The position numbers were made by a program, and so were the translations under genes. The notes under the pieces are model-generated. The model did no database searches. It saw only the letters and a program-made list of their open reading frames with translations, and was not told the DNA's origin. Of a stretch of DNA of 64,000 nt, positions 7,004 to 63,830 are shown in pieces (within the stretch, counting starts at the first letter, position 1; each line of letters begins with the position of its first letter). Location: NCBI RefSeq assembly GCF_056746865.1, contig NZ_CM163382.1; one strand, written 5' to 3'.

Positions 7004-7684
7004 TCACAGGTTAAAGGTGTTGATAAGTTTATGGATGAAAGAGAAATGTGGCAGGGCGGAGATAAAACGCTCTTCAGCGACCAGACTGTGGATGTGGCCT
7101 CTCCGTTCAAACCGTTCTGATGTCAGGCTGACTGATTTGATATCTGCCAGAGGAAAGACCTGCAGTTTTCCCTTCTGTAACGCGATCAGATACCAGCTAC
7201 CGCTGTAATAAATGAGCCGGCAGGGCTCCAGTGACGGATACCATCGCTCAGTCATCAGAGAGATGTGGATACACTGTCTTATTGCCAGGATGAGTTGCGA
7301 GAAACACTCGGGGAACGTTGCAGTGATATCCGGCGCCGGTAGCCAGATAAGGCAGGGAGAGGGCTCCTGGTTGTCGGTAAGACAGGTTATCAGTCGTCCG
7401 TTCCGGAGCGGAAGTATCCGTGCGATCCCGGTATTCTGTATAAAAGAAAGCATTTCAGGGATCGCACCTGGGCTGCTCTGTCGTCTGAGACTGTACCGGC
7501 CATTTCTGTACTCTAAGTCCAGGTGAACCAGACGCTGATGAAAATCGCGCTGTAAAGTACGTTCTGTAACGCCAAATTCATCTGACAGTGTTTTTAGTGA
7601 CAGAGATTCTCCGGCCATCAGTCGGCTGATAATGAGTGATAAGCGAACCGCCAGGCGATCATGCCGGGAACGATTATCAGACAT
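7004..7684 (-). CDS. HTH/WYL-domain transcriptional regulator (YfjR-like)
   Basis: 226-aa ORF with N-terminal HTH (LSLKTLSDEFGVTERTLQRDF) and C-terminal WYL-like region (YYSGSWYLIA). Confidence 0.6.
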   Translation of the reverse strand: MSDNRSRHDRLAVRLSLIISRLMAGESLSLKTLSDEFGVTERTLQRDFHQRLVHLDLEYRNGRYSLRRQSSPGAIPEMLSFIQNTGIARILPLRNGRLITCLTDNQEPSPCLIWLPAPDITATFPECFSQLILAIRQCIHISLMTERWYPSLEPCRLIYYSGSWYLIALQKGKLQVFPLADIKSVSLTSERFERRGHIHSLVAEERFISALPHFSFIHKLINTFNL

Positions 7685-7886: not shown

Positions 7887-8771
7887 TCAGAACAGACGAT
7901 CCCACAGTGTGACCAGCAAGTGGATAATGCGGTCCCGGGCCTTACGCAGAAGCTGTAACATCCAGGCCGGAAAGCTGAATTGGGCAACGGCAGCGTCAAA
8001 GCTTTTCCCGATGGCGTCACCAAAAGTTTGTTGTGCGTGTTTCCGGGCCTGTTCAGAGCGGTTTTCCCCCCGGATATGTGAATAAACTGCGCTGGTTGCC
8101 TGTGGTGGCAGTGCGTGGATCATCAGCGACACCAGTGCCGGAAGATTCCAGCCGACAGGTGCGGCAACGGAGAGTACCGGAAATGATGACGGGAACAGGG
8201 TTGCCACCCGGGCTGTTACTGTCGCCAGTGAGAGTTCCTGCTGACGGGACGGGCATTTTTCTGTGTCGTTCCATTCTTCAGCAGGAAACACGCGATCGGC
8301 ATGGCTGAGAACAAACAGAAAACGCGAGGGATCTGCACCTTCATTCAGTAAAAACTGATGCATGGCAATATCAGCAGCATACGCACGTTCATCAGCCCGC
8401 AGGATCCAGATAATCAGATCCAGTTCCGGCAGTAACTGACGGTAAAGCTCCCGGTATTCCTGATCATGCTGCGGTGTCTCACCAATGCCGGGCATATCGA
8501 CCAGCGTCATTCTGCGTTCACCGAGCTGCAGGGTAAGACGATGAGCCTGGCGGGTGCAGCCGTTCAGGGGATGCGTGGCGCAGATACGGGACTGAAAAAT
8601 GGCATTACACAGACTGCTTTTGCCGGTGCCGGATTTACCCATAATGCCAATTACGGGCTCGTAATGAATAACACCGTGGAGATGTTCAAGGATTTTCTGG
8701 CGAATTTCTTCAGGAAGAAACGTCAGATATGATTTTACTTGTGCAGAGAGGGAAGAATGGCTGAATGACAT
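7887..8771 (-). CDS. YfjP/YeeP-family GTPase
   Basis: P-loop GIMGKSGTGKSS and G3-like motif DMPGIGE in a 294-aa ORF. Confidence 0.75.
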   Translation of the reverse strand: MSFSHSSLSAQVKSYLTFLPEEIRQKILEHLHGVIHYEPVIGIMGKSGTGKSSLCNAIFQSRICATHPLNGCTRQAHRLTLQLGERRMTLVDMPGIGETPQHDQEYRELYRQLLPELDLIIWILRADERAYAADIAMHQFLLNEGADPSRFLFVLSHADRVFPAEEWNDTEKCPSRQQELSLATVTARVATLFPSSFPVLSVAAPVGWNLPALVSLMIHALPPQATSAVYSHIRGENRSEQARKHAQQTFGDAIGKSFDAAVAQFSFPAWMLQLLRKARDRIIHLLVTLWDRLF

Positions 8772-8955: not shown

Positions 8956-10086
8956 ATGACCGGACGTAAAAACAAATGTGTCAGAAAAAATTGTAACAAT
9001 CAGGTTTTCTCAGTAAAAATGGCAGTGGAGAAAAGACTGTGCAGAAAACATTATGAGAGGTTTTGTGAGCTCAAAAAAAGAAGAGAGCAAAATCCTGTTC
9101 ACAGATTAAATGAAGCATTGCCAAGAAAGATAAAAGGACCAAAAAGTAAGAAAAAATTAGTAAAAGAAAGAGAAATCATTAACAGCAGAAAAAAACATAA
9201 ACAGGAGCAGGGACCATCGCTGACTGAACTTAATAAAAAAGTTCGTGAGATACTGAAAACTCCTGCATGGAGAACGCTGGAAACGAGAATTCGAAGAAAC
9301 GGAATCACATTTAAGTCAAAAGCAGAGTTAGATGCGCTTTCTGAACTTTATGCAATTTATTCATGGGTTTCATATTGCAAACGGGGCGATAATTATTCTG
9401 TGTGGTTTTTGAATTGTCCGGATGTAAATATAAACCTTCATGTGTGCGAATGCCGGTCTTCTGAAAGCGATTGTTATCTGCCATCTCGTTTTATTATTCT
9501 TCCAGCTCCATTAAGGCAAAAAGTAAAAAGAAAATACTCGGCTAATTCGTCTGGGGTACCAGGACATAATGATTCAAAAAGTCTTTATAAGACAGTTTTG
9601 TCTGTTTGTGGTGGGAAAAGAGAAACCGAATTGTTCTTTTATTCACTGCCAGTAAAGACTAATCATCATCCTTACTGGATTAAAAGTGGTGTGGTTAAAA
9701 GATTTCCTCCTGTTTTTGGTTTGTTGTTTTATGAACAGGAAAGATTAACAGGAGGTGTTTTTCGTTATGTGTTGATAAGGTTTTATAATACTTTTAAGGA
9801 GAATTTGTTTTTTGTTGAGATTGTCTCGTGCTGTTTTCTTGTTGAGCTTTTTCATGATATTGATTCGTTTTTTATAAATCAACGATTAAGTAAGCTGGAA
9901 AGTTTTATAGATAAGTGGAGGGAGGGTAAAGAAATCTGGATAAAAGCATATCTACAACTGATACATAATACATTGGGAATAACTGAAACAGAAAAACTCG
10001 TCAATCTATATAATTCATTTTTTACTGATAAAGTGGTTATCTGGGATGAATCAGTAAAAAAAGTTAAGTGGATTTATGAGAAATAG
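8956..10086 (+). CDS. Hypothetical protein, 376 aa, Cys/Lys-rich N-terminus, no recognisable family; visibly AT-rich foreign gene
   Basis: Long stop-free ORF in AT-rich DNA (unlikely by chance), RBS aggag upstream of ATG; N-terminal C-x6-C...C-x2-H-x4-C and a lysine-rich tract; aromatic-rich C-terminal half. Confidence 0.55.
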   Translation: MTGRKNKCVRKNCNNQVFSVKMAVEKRLCRKHYERFCELKKRREQNPVHRLNEALPRKIKGPKSKKKLVKEREIINSRKKHKQEQGPSLTELNKKVREILKTPAWRTLETRIRRNGITFKSKAELDALSELYAIYSWVSYCKRGDNYSVWFLNCPDVNINLHVCECRSSESDCYLPSRFIILPAPLRQKVKRKYSANSSGVPGHNDSKSLYKTVLSVCGGKRETELFFYSLPVKTNHHPYWIKSGVVKRFPPVFGLLFYEQERLTGGVFRYVLIRFYNTFKENLFFVEIVSCCFLVELFHDIDSFFINQRLSKLESFIDKWREGKEIWIKAYLQLIHNTLGITETEKLVNLYNSFFTDKVVIWDESVKKVKWIYEK

Positions 10087-10619
10087 TACCATTTAACTGA
10101 AAGCCACCATAACGTCTTTTTGACTACATCCATGATAATGAGTCTCATTTTGATTTCGTTTTTTTTGTTTCGGGAAATTTTCCGAACATCAGTGATAATG
10201 AGGGTTTTGTTGTTTTTGTTTCTGCAATGTTTGAGGGCTGTTCCTGGAGATGATTCGTTGCTTGTGAGCAAGAGGTGGTCCGCTTTACTGGACAAGTTTT
10301 GCATTTGTTGAGTGGTGAAATGGAAGTAAAAAGAGCCCCTTTCTGGCAATGACTGAAAAAGTCAGTAGCGTGTGACAGTAAAAACTAACATAAAGTGATT
10401 ATCGTATGATTATGACAATGACTTATAACTTTTATGAAAAGAACAACAGAAACTATGAAACCATAGCAGATTCCTGAGACCATGTTTTCTGAGGTAGAGA
10501 AAATAATTCAAGAGTAAACCAGTTTGTTTTTTGGTCAGTAAAGAACCATGCCTGATGTGAAAACGGGTAATCAACATTCAGTCTGCATGAATGTCTGAGA
10601 ATGTTGCTAATGTCGGTAT

Positions 10620-10760
10620 GATACTATATACACGTATTTTACTAAGTATTTTTACTAAGCATTTCAGTAAGTGTTTTACCAGACATACACGTGTTTTCAT
10701 AAACAGCCCTATAAGTGTTTTCATTAAGCATTGCTGTACACATTGCTTTGTCTGAAACAC
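10620..10760. repeat. Iteron-like short direct repeats (ACACGTATTTT / AGTAAGTGTTTT / ACACGTGTTTTC / ATAAGTGTTTTC) in AT-rich noncoding DNA
   Basis: At least four closely spaced copies of a TGTTTT/TATTTT-cored motif read directly in the sequence. Confidence 0.4.
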
Positions 10761-11601
10761 ATCCAGTTTAGTAAATCTTTACGTTAGCTAAAATCAGTTT
10801 AAAGCTGCTGTAAAACCTTTCTGTTTAAGCAATCAATCTGCTATTCGATTTTACTGATGTTGCGTTTAACCTTTTCTGAGTTTTTGTGTTTTTAGTCGTT
10901 AACCTGAGACAAGTGTCTTTACGTAAAAACGCAAATCCGACTGAGATAACCTGGTGTGATTTACGGTGTGCTTGCGACGATTTTGTTAAATGGTTCTATG
11001 GATGATTTTGTGACGATGAGATTGATGAGATGATTAACTGGCCCTGGTGTTTTTTCTCAGTGCAAGGTGATTATCTTCATCATAAGGCTCTTTTCAGAAA
11101 AAGCGTGATGATTGGTTCTGGTGTTTTGATTCAGATGAGATTTACGTTATCGATGGTTAATCGTTTTTATGGTGTGTTGAAAAGTAACGTTTTCACGATA
11201 AGAAAATCGATTCTGATATTGGTGAACTTTGTTCTTGTGGCAGGGTTATCTGTAAACAGGTTTTAAGTGCGCTATTCGGCTCTGTGATTGAGTTGTGTGG
11301 TTAAGCTGTAGGTTTTGGTGTTGTTGTTGATTTACAGCGCCAGAAAGCGTTCTGATTGCGTTTTTGATGTTTTGTTTGCACGTTCTGTTGATCCGTTTCC
11401 CTTCAGGCTTTGTAGTTTTTAAAAACCATTTATGCCGTTGTTGTGTGTTTTATCCTGCGTGTAGGTTTATCTTTTCTTCGTGGGGGATTCATTCTGTTTT
11501 AATCAGGAGCCATTGGCGTTGCTCAATGGCGGGATGCCGTAAAGTTTTACCGCAGTGATTAATGATGTGAAGTCAATCCAAATCAACGGAGATCTCTCAT
11601 C

Positions 11602-12333
11602 ATGAATCAACCAATACACAATGCTTACTGGTTATCCCGTTTTGAAAGTATTCTCAACAGTGCCCTGGCGCAACACCGTGCCGTCTCGTTAATCCGGGTG
11701 GATTTACGTTTCCCTGAGTATATGCCTGCCACCATCATGGATACCGATTTAGATTCAGCGGTGATTTCTCGTTTTTTTGCATCCCTGAAAGCAAAAATTC
11801 AGGCTTACCAGCGACATAAACGACGTGCCAACAAGCGTGTGCGTGCAACCACTCTGCGTTATTTCTGGTGTCGGGAGTTTGGCAAGGAAAAAGGCAGGAA
11901 ACATTATCACGTGATATTACTGCTCAACAAAGATACCTGGTGCTCGCCAGGGGATTTCACCGTTCCTTCTTCGCTGGCGACACTGATCAAGCTGGCATGG
12001 TGTAGTGCTCTGCATCTTGAGCCCTGGCAGGGTAATGGACTGGTTCATTTTTCCAGGCGGACGCCTTTCCGTAAACCGACATCATCTGATGCTCGCCCTT
12101 CTTCCGATGATACGCCTTTGTCGGGTGGATGTTCTGATACCAGGAAGGCTTCAGACAAAAAGCCGGGTGAAGCCGCTGTTCTCTGGATCAAGCGTGGTGA
12201 TGTGGAAGCGCTGCAGAAAGCCCGGAACAGAGCCAGTTATCTCGTGAAATATGAGACGAAGCAGCATGACGGTTCCGGGCAACGTAATTATGGTTGCAGT
12301 CGTGGGCCGGGGCGTCTGCTGGATGGCAGGTGA
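11602..12333 (+). CDS. Inovirus Gp2-like protein (YagK/YfjJ family) of CP4-type elements
   Basis: N-terminus MNQPIHNAYWLSRFESILNSALAQHRAVSLIRVDLRFPE recognised from memory of the YagK family; RBS ggag 12 nt upstream. Confidence 0.55.
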   Translation: MNQPIHNAYWLSRFESILNSALAQHRAVSLIRVDLRFPEYMPATIMDTDLDSAVISRFFASLKAKIQAYQRHKRRANKRVRATTLRYFWCREFGKEKGRKHYHVILLLNKDTWCSPGDFTVPSSLATLIKLAWCSALHLEPWQGNGLVHFSRRTPFRKPTSSDARPSSDDTPLSGGCSDTRKASDKKPGEAAVLWIKRGDVEALQKARNRASYLVKYETKQHDGSGQRNYGCSRGPGRLLDGR

Positions 12334-12689
12334 GCCCTGTAAAACGACATCCGGTGTCTGAGCTTATGCTACAGGACGTTGGCTGACGCCCTTAGCTCGT
12401 TTTCTGAAAAAGTCGTCCTGAAGTCATGCAACGGTATTTTTCTCTGCTTTCGCTCCTGGAAACACTCCGTCGGTAAAACCTTACTGTCCTGCTTAATGAT
12501 GTGAACCGAAGTCAACGGAGAGCATTCATTCTGAACCTGCATCCGGTGTTCTGTCCCTTGTCGGTTACCTGATCTTCCCGTTCTGCCGCGGTTTTTCACT
12601 TATTCCATCAACCCCATACGCAAGCCATAACACGTCAGCGCATCCACGGGCAGGACGCGTTGTGGGCTGCGTATAACGGAACATATCTT

Positions 12690-13262
12690 ATGAATGCTAT
12701 CCCTTATTTCGACTATAGCATGGCGCCCTTCTGGCCATCTTATCAGAACAAAATCATCGGCGTTCTCAACCGTGTGTTGCGCGAGCAGTCCTGCTCCCGA
12801 ATACGGCGGATCCTGCTTCGTCTGCCGGGGGAACATGGCAACATCTTCAGCGACAGAAAAACCTGGTTCGGTATGGCCTTTATCGAAACCGTCAGTGCGC
12901 TGATGAATGCAACACCCGGACGCGACCTCTGCTGGCTCCTGACACGTCATCCTGAAAAACCGGAATACCACGTGGTGCTGTGCGTCAGACAGGAATATTT
13001 CGACGGCCCTGAGCTGGACCGGTTGATTCTGGATGCCTGGAGCAACGTACTGGGCTTCGCGTCACCGGGTGAAGCAGCACCGTACCAGAAACAGATAACC
13101 CGGGATGTGGTGCTGGACAGTTGTTCACCGGACTGCGAAGAGAGACTCAAAGAGCTGATATGGGCGTTCAGTGATTTCGCCCGCGATCGTCGTGGTGTGC
13201 GCGATCCGGAAGCCCGTTACCTCGCCGGTAATCCCTGGTATCCCGTAGCAGGCCAGCTCTGA
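12690..13262 (+). CDS. Second YagK/YfjJ-family-like protein (paralogous module)
   Basis: 190-aa ORF from ATG 12690; similar leader element upstream (TTAATGATGTGAA...CAACGGAGA); family call is tentative. Confidence 0.4.
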   Translation: MNAIPYFDYSMAPFWPSYQNKIIGVLNRVLREQSCSRIRRILLRLPGEHGNIFSDRKTWFGMAFIETVSALMNATPGRDLCWLLTRHPEKPEYHVVLCVRQEYFDGPELDRLILDAWSNVLGFASPGEAAPYQKQITRDVVLDSCSPDCEERLKELIWAFSDFARDRRGVRDPEARYLAGNPWYPVAGQL

Positions 13263-13330
13263 AAGCTCAGCTCAGCAGATTCACCCGCATTTGCCCAACA
13301 TTCATAAATCTCACAGAGGACATTCTGACC

Positions 13331-13567
13331 ATGTTGACCTCAATGACAGGTCACGACAGCGTATTGCTGCGTGCCGACGATCCCCTGATCGACATGAACT
13401 ACATCACCAGCTTCACTGGTATGACCGACAAATGGTTTTACAAGCTGATCAGTGAAGGCCATTTCCCTAAACCCATCAAACTGGGGCGCAGCAGCCGCTG
13501 GTACAAAAGTGAAGTGGAGCAGTGGATGCAGCAACGAATCGAGGCATCACGAGGGGCAGCAGCATGA
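13331..13567 (+). CDS. alpA: AlpA-family phage/integrative-element transcriptional regulator
   Basis: 78-aa ORF with AlpA-like core (YITSFTGMTDKWFYKLISEGHFPKPIKLGRSSRWYKSEVEQWM). Confidence 0.8.
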   Translation: MLTSMTGHDSVLLRADDPLIDMNYITSFTGMTDKWFYKLISEGHFPKPIKLGRSSRWYKSEVEQWMQQRIEASRGAAA

Positions 13568-40239: not shown

Positions 40240-41287
40240 ATGAAATATACACCGGTTGGCGTTGATATCGCAAAGTATCTGATTCAGGTTCACTTCATCA
40301 ATGAGTACACGGGCGAAGTGGTGGACAAGCAGCTACGTAGCAAGGATTTTCTGACGTTCTTCAGCAACCGGGAACCCTGTCTGATAGGTATGGAGGCTTG
40401 TGGAGGCTCCCAACATTGGGCGAGGGAACTGGAAAAAACTGGGACACAAAGTTCGGCTGTTGCAAGCTCGCTTCGTTAAAGCATTCGTCATGGGCAACAA
40501 AAATGATGTGATGGATGCGCGTGCTATCTGGATGGCGGTACAGCAGCCCAGTAAAGATATCGCTGTTAAAACGGAAGAGAAGCAGTCAGTTCTGGTCCTG
40601 CACCGTTCGCGCAGACAACTGGTGAAGTTCAGAACCTCGCATATTAATACCCTTGGCACGCTCCTCGAGTTTGGTGAAATCCTCCACAAAGATTGGACAG
40701 CGATGGACAGAAAGCTACCGACAGCCCTAGAGCGAATGAAGACGAACCTGCCGCCGTATCTCATCACTGTGCTTGAATACCAGTACAACAGACTGAGTGA
40801 GCTGGGCATGCAGATAGATGGCCTTGATAAACAGATTAACAGCGTGGCACGGCAGAGCGAAAACTGTAAGCGCCTAATGGAAATCCCCGGTGTGGGGCCG
40901 TTAATCGCTACGGCGGTGGTCGCCACCATGGGCGAGGCCTCAGCATTTAAATCCGGACGTGAGTTTGACGCTTATGTCTGTCTGGTGCCGAAGCAGACGG
41001 GGTCCGCTGGGAAGGTTCGCATGCTGGGGATAAGCAAACGTGGGGATACCTACCACCGGACATTATTTATCCATGGGGCAAGGGCGGCAGCATTGCTTAC
41101 CAAAGAACCCGGCCCATGGATCACGGAGCTGAAAAAACGGCAGCCGACAGGTGTAATGCCGATCAGTTTAGGAGCAGTTGACCGATCCAGGGTCTGTTTA
41201 AGAATCCTGAAACGCTCACTCGTTTCCGGATTTTTGTGCACAGAAAAACCCCAGCTAGGCTGGGGGCCGGAAAGCTTTCAGCTTTGA
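40240..41287 (+). pseudogene. IS110-family transposase, frameshifted
   Basis: N-terminal MKYTPVGVDIAKY... in ORF 40141-40479 continues in ORF 40400-41287 after a frame change; the C-terminal part is IS110-like. Confidence 0.6.
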
Positions 41288-41376
41288 GCCAGTTATTAAA
41301 ACCCCTTTTGATTTGTTAAAACACCTTGCGGTCTGGCAACTGCAAGTGTCAAACAAGAAATCAAAAGGGGGTCCCA

Positions 41377-63049: not shown

Positions 63050-63830
63050 TACGATATTCATTGTGATTCCCCTGCTGAGTGAGTGCATTTCGTACAGTTA
63101 ACCGCAAAAGGAGGGGGTACTCCATTCCATGAACTGGAAGCCCAGATACGATGCATAGAGTCACCTGATATTAAAAAGAACGAGGATCTTGAGGACGAGA
63201 ACCGACGTCCAAAACAGATGCTTGCCGACCTTAGCCTAGAGAACCGGCATTGAAAGACATTATCGAAAAAAGCTTTAAAACCAGCCTGTAAGCGTGAGCT
63301 TGTTACTCATCAGATAACGACATTTGGACTCAGTGTCCATCAGGCCTGCCGGAGTCTGAACCAGAGCAGAACGGTTTCCCATTACCGTCCGGATACCACG
63401 TGGTACGACCCCGTTATTGTGGTGGTGCAGGCAGTGGACGAGCGATATCCTCGATACGGTTTTTCAAAACTTTTTCAGGTTCTGAGGCAGCAGGTTCGCG
63501 GCAAATCGCAGTTATCCGGTCATGCTGCGCATAGATAATGGTTCGGAATTTATCTCTCTAACGCTGGCTGAATGGGCTGATATACACGCAGTAAAACGGG
63601 AGTTTATCCAGCCGGGTAAGCTGACGTAGAACGCTTTTATTGGGCGTTTTAACAGGACACACCGTACAGAAATACTCGATTTTTATCTGTTCAGAACGCT
63701 GAATGAAGTTCTAGAAATTACGGAGAAATGGTTATCAGAATATAGCTATGAACGCACACATGAATCACTGAACAATAAGACGCTGGAAGAATATCGACGA
63801 CACCATTATTTGACCAAGATATAAAAATGC
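63050..63830 (+). pseudogene. IS3-family transposase debris
   Basis: Fragments PKQMLADLSLENRH and LNEVLEITEKWLSEYSYERTHESLNNKTLEEYRR in multiple frames. Confidence 0.45.

Follow-up and report, generated by a model that had tools for sequence, protein, structure and literature searches.

Within a 64,000-nucleotide stretch of contig NZ_CM163382.1 (NCBI RefSeq assembly GCF_056746865.1), hereafter called the window, an array of short direct repeats follows a strongly conserved sequence box in the noncoding DNA upstream of a gene of the YagK/YfjJ family (annotated as 'inovirus Gp2 family' and called Gp2 below). Judging from comparisons between related loci, the array is most likely a protein-docking site for the Gp2 module. 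The more specific reading that is tentatively preferred here, well short of a firm assignment, is that the array is a docking array for Gp2 itself, lying beside the conserved box and serving as an operator and/or origin-like site. All positions given below are those of the window unless a distant locus, labeled with an L number, is named.

The array consists of 6–8 same-orientation units of about 12–13 nt between positions 10630 and 10760, all on the + strand. Its core (10630–10728, +) has six units of about 12–20 nt that follow the pattern (ACAC|TAAG)-(G)TRTTTT-MH: ACACGTATTTTACTAAG (10630–10646), TATTTTTACTAAG (10647–10659), CATTTCAGTAAG (10660–10671), TGTTTTACCAGAC (10672–10684), ATACACGTGTTTTCATAAAC (10685–10704) and TATAAGTGTTTTCATTAAG (10710–10728), and these are trailed by two degenerate units, CATTGCTGTACAC and ATTGCTTTGTCTGAAACAC (10729–10760, +). 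Exact GTRTTTT cores (n = 5) start at 10634, 10646, 10671, 10691 and 10715, at spacings of 12, 25, 20 and 24 nt; the corresponding unit spacings are 12/13/12/20/24, with units 1–4 at a 12–13 nt pitch and later pitches of 20 and 24 nt. The motif GTRTTTTNM occurs five times in 90 nt of array, and 25 times (both strands) in the whole window against 9.6 expected. Tandem Repeats Finder reported 10634–10679 as a repeat of period 12 with 3.8 copies and a score of 55, which was reached by 6 of 500 dinucleotide shuffles of 10087–11601, and more than three GTRTTTT per 100 nt were found in none of 2000 shuffles versus five observed, for a core that was picked after seeing the data. Autocorrelation peaks within the array lie at lags of 12, 24, 57, 69 and 81, and T-tracts recur every 12–13 bp in the array region. 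Statistically, the array is real. The same-strand direct repeats that an earlier note on this DNA had reported at 10620–10760 are present, all on the + strand and beyond shuffle expectation, and the note had correctly placed them upstream of the Gp2 homolog on the same strand, though the distance to the Gp2 ATG at 11602 is about 870–970 nt.

A 421-bp stretch around the array was found in 1864 of 5426 complete E. coli genomes, at 71–99% identity, and is never annotated. Fourteen loci covering this identity range were aligned, with pairwise divergence computed on 13 of them. All 14 show the same order: a GTPase gene (-), variable cargo, a conserved noncoding block, and Gp2 (+). The conserved block runs from about 10500 to the Gp2 start codon, sequences to the left of it are unrelated between loci, and at least three different cargo sets terminate at about 10480–10500. 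Since the left-hand DNA is swapped while the block and Gp2 are kept together, the array is linked to the Gp2 module. Within the array, units 5 and 6 (10685–10728) are near-invariant in all 14 loci, units 1–4 come and go as blocks of 13, 31 and 49 nt, and an 18-nt block of the trailing units (10729–10760) is missing in five loci; the unit flanks ACAC and TAAG are conserved. Mean pairwise divergence is 9.3% in the array and 13–22% in the rest of the leader, dropping to 6.8% over the 100 nt that adjoin the start codon, compared with 5.6% for the Gp2 coding sequence (7.9% at third codon positions). Conservation in the noncoding block has two peaks, of which the array is one. A coding role was considered and rejected: the open reading frames (ORFs) that cover the array (10591–10755, +; 10578–10760, -) and the leader are not kept, their frames being broken by indels. 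Because copy number shifts by whole-unit indels and no ORF is kept across loci, the array is not coding, and the description of this region as noncoding in the earlier note is borne out by orthologues that differ by 13-, 18-, 31- and 49-nt indels and by the lack of any ORF in the gap that stays full-length across loci. The note had also named lack of conservation of the motif array in related elements, together with lack of binding by element-encoded proteins, as evidence against its proposal; the units are kept across the 14 loci, and the array is both real and conserved in related elements.

The box adjoining the array, TGTCGGTATGATACTATAT (10611–10629, +), has an invariant TGTCGG followed by an AT-rich, -10-like tail. 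It occurs once in the window and is near-invariant in the 14 E. coli loci, with the array starting 1–5 nt 3' of it. A promoter scan returned CTGAGA-16-TATGAT at 10595–10622 as the only sigma-70-like site on the + strand in 10000–11700. When 80 distant Gp2-family loci were retrieved, one genome per species, boxes of the form TGT(C/T)GG plus an AT-rich tail (e.g., TATAGTAATATAT) were seen on the strand of the gene, 130–540 nt upstream of the Gp2 homolog. Variants of the box were present upstream of Gp2-family genes, on the gene's strand, in about 45 of 83 loci, covering Enterobacterales, Aeromonadales, Vibrio, Alcanivorax and Hydrogenovibrio, and genera including Tatumella, Kosakonia, Rosenbergiella, Budvicia, Limnobaculum, Providencia, Proteus, Serratia and Tolumonas (box-bearing loci include L023, L026, L027, L031, L035, L036, L040, L041, L049, L053, L059, L062, L068, L069, L071, L072, L078, L079, L083, L086, L093, L097 and L099). 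A profile built from 23 examples scored at least 12 bits upstream of the gene in 22 of 60 further loci and downstream in one of about 80. In K-12, box-like sequences lie 60–100 nt before the start codons of yagK and yfjJ (L018/L019); these two homologs were set aside, their proteins being only 30% identical and their genes having the box-like sequence with no long leader and no homologous leader or array. The -10-like hexamer mostly begins directly after TGTYGG, and -35 partners are poor. On these features the box could be an unusual promoter, for instance one that depends on an activator, or else a site recognized by a protein, and it is taken here as a putative promoter and/or nick site. Because it is also present in loci with no AlpA match (L036, L079, L097) and before K-12 yagK, near which no AlpA is annotated, the box is linked to Gp2 and not to AlpA. 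The TGTCGG box is a more general feature than the array, and was overlooked in the earlier note. No description of it was found in the literature searched, and as a feature upstream of YagK/YfjJ-family genes it is apparently undescribed so far. In reverse complement the box seemed to resemble the phiX174 origin (CAACTTGATATTAATAACACTATAGACCAC), but this likeness was rejected on the box-profile score.

Both E. coli-type loci and those of Budviciaceae have repeats beside the box. In four of the latter, the 5–15 nt after the box lead into tandem arrays that are unrelated in sequence to the E. coli units and consist of perfect repeats with unit lengths of 8, 16 and 36 nt: 17–18 copies of TAATACTG in L041, about 4–5 copies of a 36-nt unit in L035, GGAGGTTTCTTTATAT-type units in L040 and GGATTTATATAGG-type units in L049. 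When an array was defined as at least three exact copies of a 7-mer within 140 nt, 5 of 44 box-bearing loci had one after the box and none had one before it. Around the gene, at least four near-exact 9-mers were found upstream (1–1.2 kb) in 8 of 78 loci versus downstream in 2 of 75, and at least three exact 8-mers in 11 of 80 versus 2 of 77. Arrays are thus enriched upstream of Gp2 genes, yet most loci have none, and those that do mostly have long leaders. The loci L040 and L049, with Gp2 proteins 92% identical, share a TTTATAT(R)G-type unit, and the units differ where Gp2 identity is 83% and 74%; this change of unit with Gp2 divergence in Budviciaceae is compatible with co-evolution of array and protein, and equally with rapid turnover alone. 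Budvicia aquatica DSM 5075 carries three Gp2 copies (L040, L041 and L046), of which the first two each have a strong box and a different array, while L046 has a weak box match and no clear array. The pattern at L040 and L041 is that expected if arrays give element-specific recognition.

The core of the E. coli unit recurs outside this group. Tolumonas (L078) shares the E. coli core in its 5–8 AAGTGTTTT(T)C units, which are spaced at 11 nt, and in Aeromonas the unit core takes the form GTGTTTTT. In Brenneria (L017), three copies of ACACATTTTA lie by a divergent gene, about 640–710 nt upstream of the Gp2 homolog. The sequence TCCAGTTTTGCTAAA directly follows the GTGTTTT array of Tolumonas and has the E. 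coli counterpart TCCAGTTTAGTAAA, and the 12-mer AATGGCGGGATG is identical in Tolumonas, 115 nt before the Gp2 start; the Tolumonas Gp2 is 37% identical to that of the window (local alignment) and its AlpA-like protein 30%. The pair TCCAGTTT(T)AG/GCTAAA and AATGGCGGGATG have the same order relative to array and gene in both loci (L078 3712–3727 and 3887–3898). As family-wide boxes, TCCAGTTT and AATGGCGGGATG were rejected, having been found only in the E. coli-type locus and Tolumonas osonensis and being absent from the other 80 loci.

The Gp2 gene (11602–12333, +) encodes a protein of 243 aa, assigned by Pfam, motifs and predicted fold. It matches YagK_YfjJ_C (2.9e-36) and REP_ORF2-G2P (3.4e-10), and has the family motifs RVDLRxP, KHYHVxLLLN (HUH) and, near the C-terminus, YLxKxxTK, which in the E. 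coli protein read KHYHVILLLN and YLVKYETK (two tyrosines four residues apart). Residues H101, H103, Y213, K216 and K220 are at least 90% conserved in the family alignment (A2). An AlphaFold model (mean predicted local distance difference test score, pLDDT, 76) gave as best Foldseek matches the nuclease/origin-binding domain of adeno-associated virus (AAV) 5 Rep (probability 0.96, E = 6e-3), parvovirus NS1 and the Rep of one CRESS (circular Rep-encoding single-stranded DNA) virus; a sequence profile search of the PDB with Gp2 gave no match. From these motifs and the model, Gp2 is plausibly a HUH-type, Rep-like nuclease confined to islands, and the view of it in the earlier note as a replication-initiator-type protein agrees with the HUH and YxxK motifs, the REP_ORF2-G2P match and the weakly Rep-nuclease-like predicted fold. 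A role as the Rep of an autonomous replicon was rejected, since the matches among plasmids and phages were either misassigned contigs or pieces of islands carried on large plasmids; in 50,697 phage records the sole meaningful match, besides a misassigned 4.5-kb E. coli contig, was to 62 residues of a microvirus Rep. No function for YagK/YfjJ-family proteins, nor any linked cis element, was found in the literature searched, and a preprint on phage-transduced islands of Pseudomonas lists Gp2 with AlpA, RadC and YqaJ among the likely core genes, assigning no function to the Gp2 and AlpA pair (doi 10.1101/2024.08.29.610337). E. coli PAI (pathogenicity island)-type Gp2 proteins have a low-complexity insertion of about 35–45 aa at residues ~154–188 (RTPFRKPTSSDARPSSDDTPLSGGCSDTRKASDKKPGEAA), which is absent from all distant homologs and has a pLDDT below 50 in the model.

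Two other sets of proteins were noted around Gp2-family genes. Divergent proteins of 323–330 aa (L017 2284–3255, -; L016 1978–2970, -; L035 ~1710–2576, -) have a GYFWV...YIH(V/F)xFY(I/V)D arrangement that parallels RYFWCREFG...KHYHVILLLN of Gp2, and may be distant paralogs of the HUH protein. A protein of about 286 aa recurs upstream of Gp2 on the opposite strand (e.g., L078 2729–3589, -), with homologs upstream in L028, L030, L031, L040, L048, L049, L056, L064, L068, L070, L072, L084, L088 and L091; it does not occur in the window, and its C-terminus matches the Pfam family RepB-RCR_reg (rolling-circle plasmid replication regulator) at 22 bits, the cutoff being 21.

An AlpA-like gene adjoins Gp2 in 71 of 84 loci, usually 100–150 nt downstream, and upstream of Gp2 in Budviciaceae and a few other loci. 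AlpA-like proteins are 65–80% identical across genera versus 30–55% for Gp2, which suggests that AlpA has a conserved partner or target other than the variable array. The helix-turn-helix of AlpA is near-invariant in the window, L017, L023, L035, L040, L041 and L049, where the arrays are unrelated. AlpA, named in the earlier note as a possible array binder, is an unlikely one: its recognition region stays constant where arrays differ wholly, and the unit shared with Tolumonas occurs there beside an AlpA-like protein of just 30% identity. The antiterminator model of Pseudomonas aeruginosa AlpA was considered and dropped as a guide to the array, since that is evidently a far larger protein (contacts at R128–H142, compared with 78 aa here) acting at a single 6-bp site. 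A divergent neighbor shared between loci was likewise dismissed as binder of the GTGTTTT unit, the neighbors in Tolumonas, Brenneria and L016 having no homolog in the window. Only Gp2 was found to be common to the E. coli and Tolumonas loci that share this unit.

In the tentatively preferred reading, the box, TGTCGG with its AT-rich tail at 10611–10629, would mark the upstream edge of the Gp2 module, and the 6–8 same-orientation units of ~12 nt would accommodate a row of adjacent copies of a single protein, most likely Gp2. The conserved core of Gp2 would recognize the invariant box, and its variable surfaces the lineage-specific repeats. As the box is promoter-like (a -10-like hexamer lacking a good -35), a protein bound to the repeats, which lie at about +1 to +100, would at a minimum slow or gate transcription into the ~970-nt leader and gp2-alpA, and Gp2 may also nick here to start replication or mobilization of the excised island. 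Short direct repeats in tandem, next to a nick sequence conserved in the family, are common docking sites of HUH initiators; examples are the docking of pMV158 RepB on three 11-bp repeats, geminivirus Rep on iterons that overlap the rep promoter, and AAV Rep on the Rep-binding element. Docking of Gp2 is favored because an invariant box, adjacent lineage-specific repeats and a downstream HUH gene on the same strand would fit this logic. The stronger proposal, that the box is the nick and recognition site of YagK/YfjJ HUH nucleases and the repeats are island-specific 'iterons', together forming a CP4/PAI-type replication or mobilization origin, is put forward as an unlikely outcome. Nicking by Gp2 might, in addition, seed local tandem duplications.

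Several observations weigh against Gp2 docking. Neither in phiX174 nor in the microvirus whose Rep weakly matches Gp2 does any site score above 7.9 bits with the box profile, the fold match of Gp2 is weak (E = 6e-3, template modeling (TM) score ~0.3), and the plasmid and phage records searched gave no autonomous replicon with a Gp2 homolog as its sole Rep. No significant hairpin or inverted repeat was found that could serve as a nick site: a hairpin after the array was tried and rejected on a DNA fold z of +0.40 (10725–10860, a segment that lies outside the box). A pitch of 12–13 bp does not match the helical repeat. In most Gp2-family loci the box comes with no detectable array, so an array cannot be essential to the core function of the family. 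In Tolumonas the TGTCGG box sits between array and gene, and the Brenneria and Tolumonas arrays both lie upstream of the box, beside a divergent gene. Finally, the co-variation of arrays with Gp2 could be plain fast turnover.

Between array and gene lies a long, divergent leader. It begins with a conserved flank of invariant alignment columns, ATCCAGTTTAGTAAATCTTTACG (10761–10783, +), into which some loci have a 13-nt insertion between GTAAA and TTTAC. The G+T-rich, C-poor noncoding leader proper (10784–11500, +), delimited by skew and composition, is the most divergent part of the conserved block, with a strong G+T bias over 10880–11480; at 11001–11500 its GC skew is +0.32 and its AT skew -0.36, and GTTTT is the commonest 5-mer of 10087–11601 (23 on the + and 5 on the - strand). 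No periodicity outside 10630–10760, no conserved ORF and no Rfam match were detected in it, and the absence of periodicity ruled out that the array once extended through the entire leader and has since decayed there. Our guesses for the skew are a long Rho-resistant untranslated transcript or past single-strandedness. The last stretch before the gene (11501–11601, +) is highly conserved, with column identities of 0.90–1.00, and contains AATGGCGGGATG at 11525–11536 and a ribosome-binding site. A known RNA was rejected for 9900–11800, where Rfam gave one chance-level match (17.5 bits versus a gathering score of 35); RNA folding gave no significant structure (z = -1.6, and z = -1.4 for the stretch before the gene), and no terminators were predicted in 10000–11700.

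Binding by a protein other than Gp2, with the array as its operator, is also conceivable and is rated somewhat unlikely; the 200-aa protein encoded at 12660–13262, the HTH-WYL (helix-turn-helix-WYL) regulator at 7004–7684, AlpA, or H-NS acting on T-tract-rich DNA of 35% G+C could silence or gate the promoter-like box and long leader with no DNA processing. The array does lie directly downstream of the one site on the + strand of the gap that is sigma-70-like, many loci have a -10-like hexamer after TGTYGG, the gap has 33–38% G+C in a context of about 50% with T-tracts each 12–13 bp, and the island encodes several uncharacterized DNA-binding proteins. However, the recognition region of AlpA is near-invariant where arrays are unrelated, Gp2 is the only protein found in common between the E. 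coli and Tolumonas loci with the shared GTGTTTT unit, and binding of the H-NS type leaves both the conserved ACAC/TAAG flanks and the perfect, lineage-specific tandem units of Budviciaceae unexplained. The repeats could, on the other hand, be functionless and slippage-prone, lying beside a box where the DNA is perhaps often melted or nicked and persisting as the island copies are young. Whole-unit changes in copy number among close relatives, with indels concentrated by the box, would be explained in this way, as would the Budviciaceae repeats, whose perfection is typical of recent slippage, and the lack of arrays in most family members; the Tandem Repeats Finder result alone is only modestly significant (6/500 shuffles). 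This account is doubtful, given that the units are degenerate, and so old, and that the array is about half as diverged as the adjoining leader, with units 5 and 6 near-invariant in 14/14 loci; nor does it account for the AAGTGTTTT core appearing again in Tolumonas and the GTGTTTTT form in Aeromonas, or for arrays after the box in 5/44 loci versus before it in 0/44.

Action at the RNA level appears improbable. Here the repeats would form the 5' end of a ~970-nt leader transcript and offer U-rich/UAAG sites to Hfq, a ProQ/FinO-type protein or an RNase, the bound protein controlling leader stability or read-through. Their place at about +1 to +130 of the putative promoter suits such a role, the G+U-rich, C-poor sense leader would be a poor Rho substrate (a link to Rho that is itself conjectural), and a ProQ/FinO-family pseudogene is present in one related island copy; against this, no significant RNA structure (z = -1.6, -1.4), Rfam match or predicted terminator was found, and the arrays of Tolumonas and Brenneria, being upstream of the box, would fall outside the same transcript. 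Least credible of all is a theta-type origin of the classical kind, in which a plasmid-like initiator and DnaA would act on iterons or 13-mer unwinding elements. AT-rich tandem 12–13-mers do resemble unwinding elements such as the 13-mers of oriC, and a Rep-like gene lies downstream, but the DnaA box TTWTNCACA has seven matches in the window and none in 10087–11601, unit size and spacing are unlike 17–22-bp iterons, the neighboring gene is of the HUH type and not a winged-helix iteron-binding Rep (RepA/TrfA/pi type), and Gp2 homologs were not found as Rep on autonomous replicons. The suggestion in the earlier note of an origin or iteron array stands in part: a protein-binding array tied to the Gp2 module is likely, whereas pitch, the lack of DnaA boxes and initiator class speak against an iteron origin of the plasmid style. 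The other reading offered in that note, an array bound by a regulator, keeps its full plausibility.

The gap that holds the box, array and leader (10087–11601) is 1.5 kb long, unannotated, of 33–38% G+C in surroundings of about 50%, and part of an E. coli-type CP4/PAI island backbone. To its left are genes for an HTH-WYL regulator (7004–7684, -), a YeeP-like GTPase (7887–8771, -) and a low-G+C hypothetical 'cargo' protein of 376 aa (8956–10086, +); to its right, Gp2 is followed by a gene for a 200-aa hypothetical protein (12660–13262), which lies between Gp2 and AlpA, and by that for AlpA, a small helix-turn-helix protein of 78 aa (13331–13567, +; Pfam Phage_AlpA, 2e-10). No tRNA gene was found in the 64-kb window and no integrase within several kb of the array, which is positioned between cargo and Gp2 leader and not at an attachment site. 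Genes for a ParA/ParM NTPase and a centromere-binding protein are absent among the neighbors of the array (hypothetical cargo, Gp2, 200-aa hypothetical and AlpA). The leader and Gp2 are flanked on both sides by variable cargo slots (8956–10086 and 12334–13330 in the window; loci L002–L013). The left slot contains a 376-aa protein, a 407-aa protein or a convergent two-gene set, all hypothetical, and the right slot a restriction endonuclease, a TIR-domain protein, an ATP-dependent nuclease, or the 200-aa hypothetical protein plus AlpA. This layout is like that of a defense hotspot, but annotation of the variable cargo as defense genes was dropped after PADLOC returned no matches for five left-slot proteins and the two hypothetical proteins downstream of Gp2 in the window. 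Elsewhere in the window, Rfam gave full-length matches to STnc490 (41246–41367, +; 129 bits) and isrN (63277–63419, -; 138 bits), island-associated Hfq-binding small RNAs that were first named in Salmonella.

The Gp2-AlpA module is a core of a very widespread class of islands, and the stretch studied here is present in about a third of complete E. coli genomes. The box and the lineage-specific repeats bear on how such islands are regulated and on their replication or processing after excision. If the box is a nick site and the repeats are island-specific iterons, very common islands would have a defined processing site, and the avoidance of cross-talk between co-resident islands would be explained; if the array is merely an operator or a product of slippage, the result is an ordinary one. 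The array gives this very common family of islands a putative cis element that can be tested and that is of a familiar kind.

Among known systems, the theta-type iteron origins (pSC101, RK2, F, P1) and ori/crr of P4 share with the present locus direct repeats upstream of a replication-type gene and, for P4, a P4/CP4-like island, but differ in unit length and spacing (here not ~20-bp units on a 22-bp pitch), DnaA boxes and class of initiator. Operator arrays such as those of P2 Cox, 186 Apl and lambda Xis, and the 11-bp repeats of R1 ParR-parC, place same-orientation sites about one helical turn apart at a promoter, a pitch that the first four units here may approach (12–13 nt) before the spacing widens to 20 and 24 nt; a small gene of the AlpA/excisionase family lies in the present module as well. 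Unlike these, the present array is not at an attachment site, has no nearby integrase, tRNA gene or partition genes, and varies where AlpA is constant. The best structural matches of Gp2 (weak, TM ~0.3) are nuclease/origin-binding domains of AAV Rep and parvovirus NS1 and a CRESS Rep, and the geminivirus and CRESS-virus iterons and the AAV Rep-binding element resemble the present locus in its lineage-specific repeats next to a conserved AT-rich element and a promoter-like site; by analogy with geminiviruses and AAV, this suggests that origin recognition could be combined with autoregulation. A stem-loop with a nonanucleotide is missing here, however, the units are longer, and Gp2 has no helicase domain. 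The double-strand origin of pMV158 consists of a nic locus and a 'bind' locus of three 11-bp direct repeats for RepB. The present locus departs from it in having no detected hairpin at a nick site, a 12–13-bp pitch with irregular gaps and about 900 nt between array and gene, and in lying on a chromosomal island instead of a plasmid, in a family of which most members have no repeats (only 5 of 44 box loci have at least three exact copies). In both cases, a gene for a HUH initiator, a putative one here, lies downstream (Gp2 carries the HUH motif and the YxxK tyrosine expected at a rolling-circle origin). Where the present family has them, as in E. coli-type and Budviciaceae loci, short same-orientation repeats at roughly one helical turn lie beside a conserved sequence, as in pMV158, and the repeats would be specific to the replicon while the conserved element is shared across the family.

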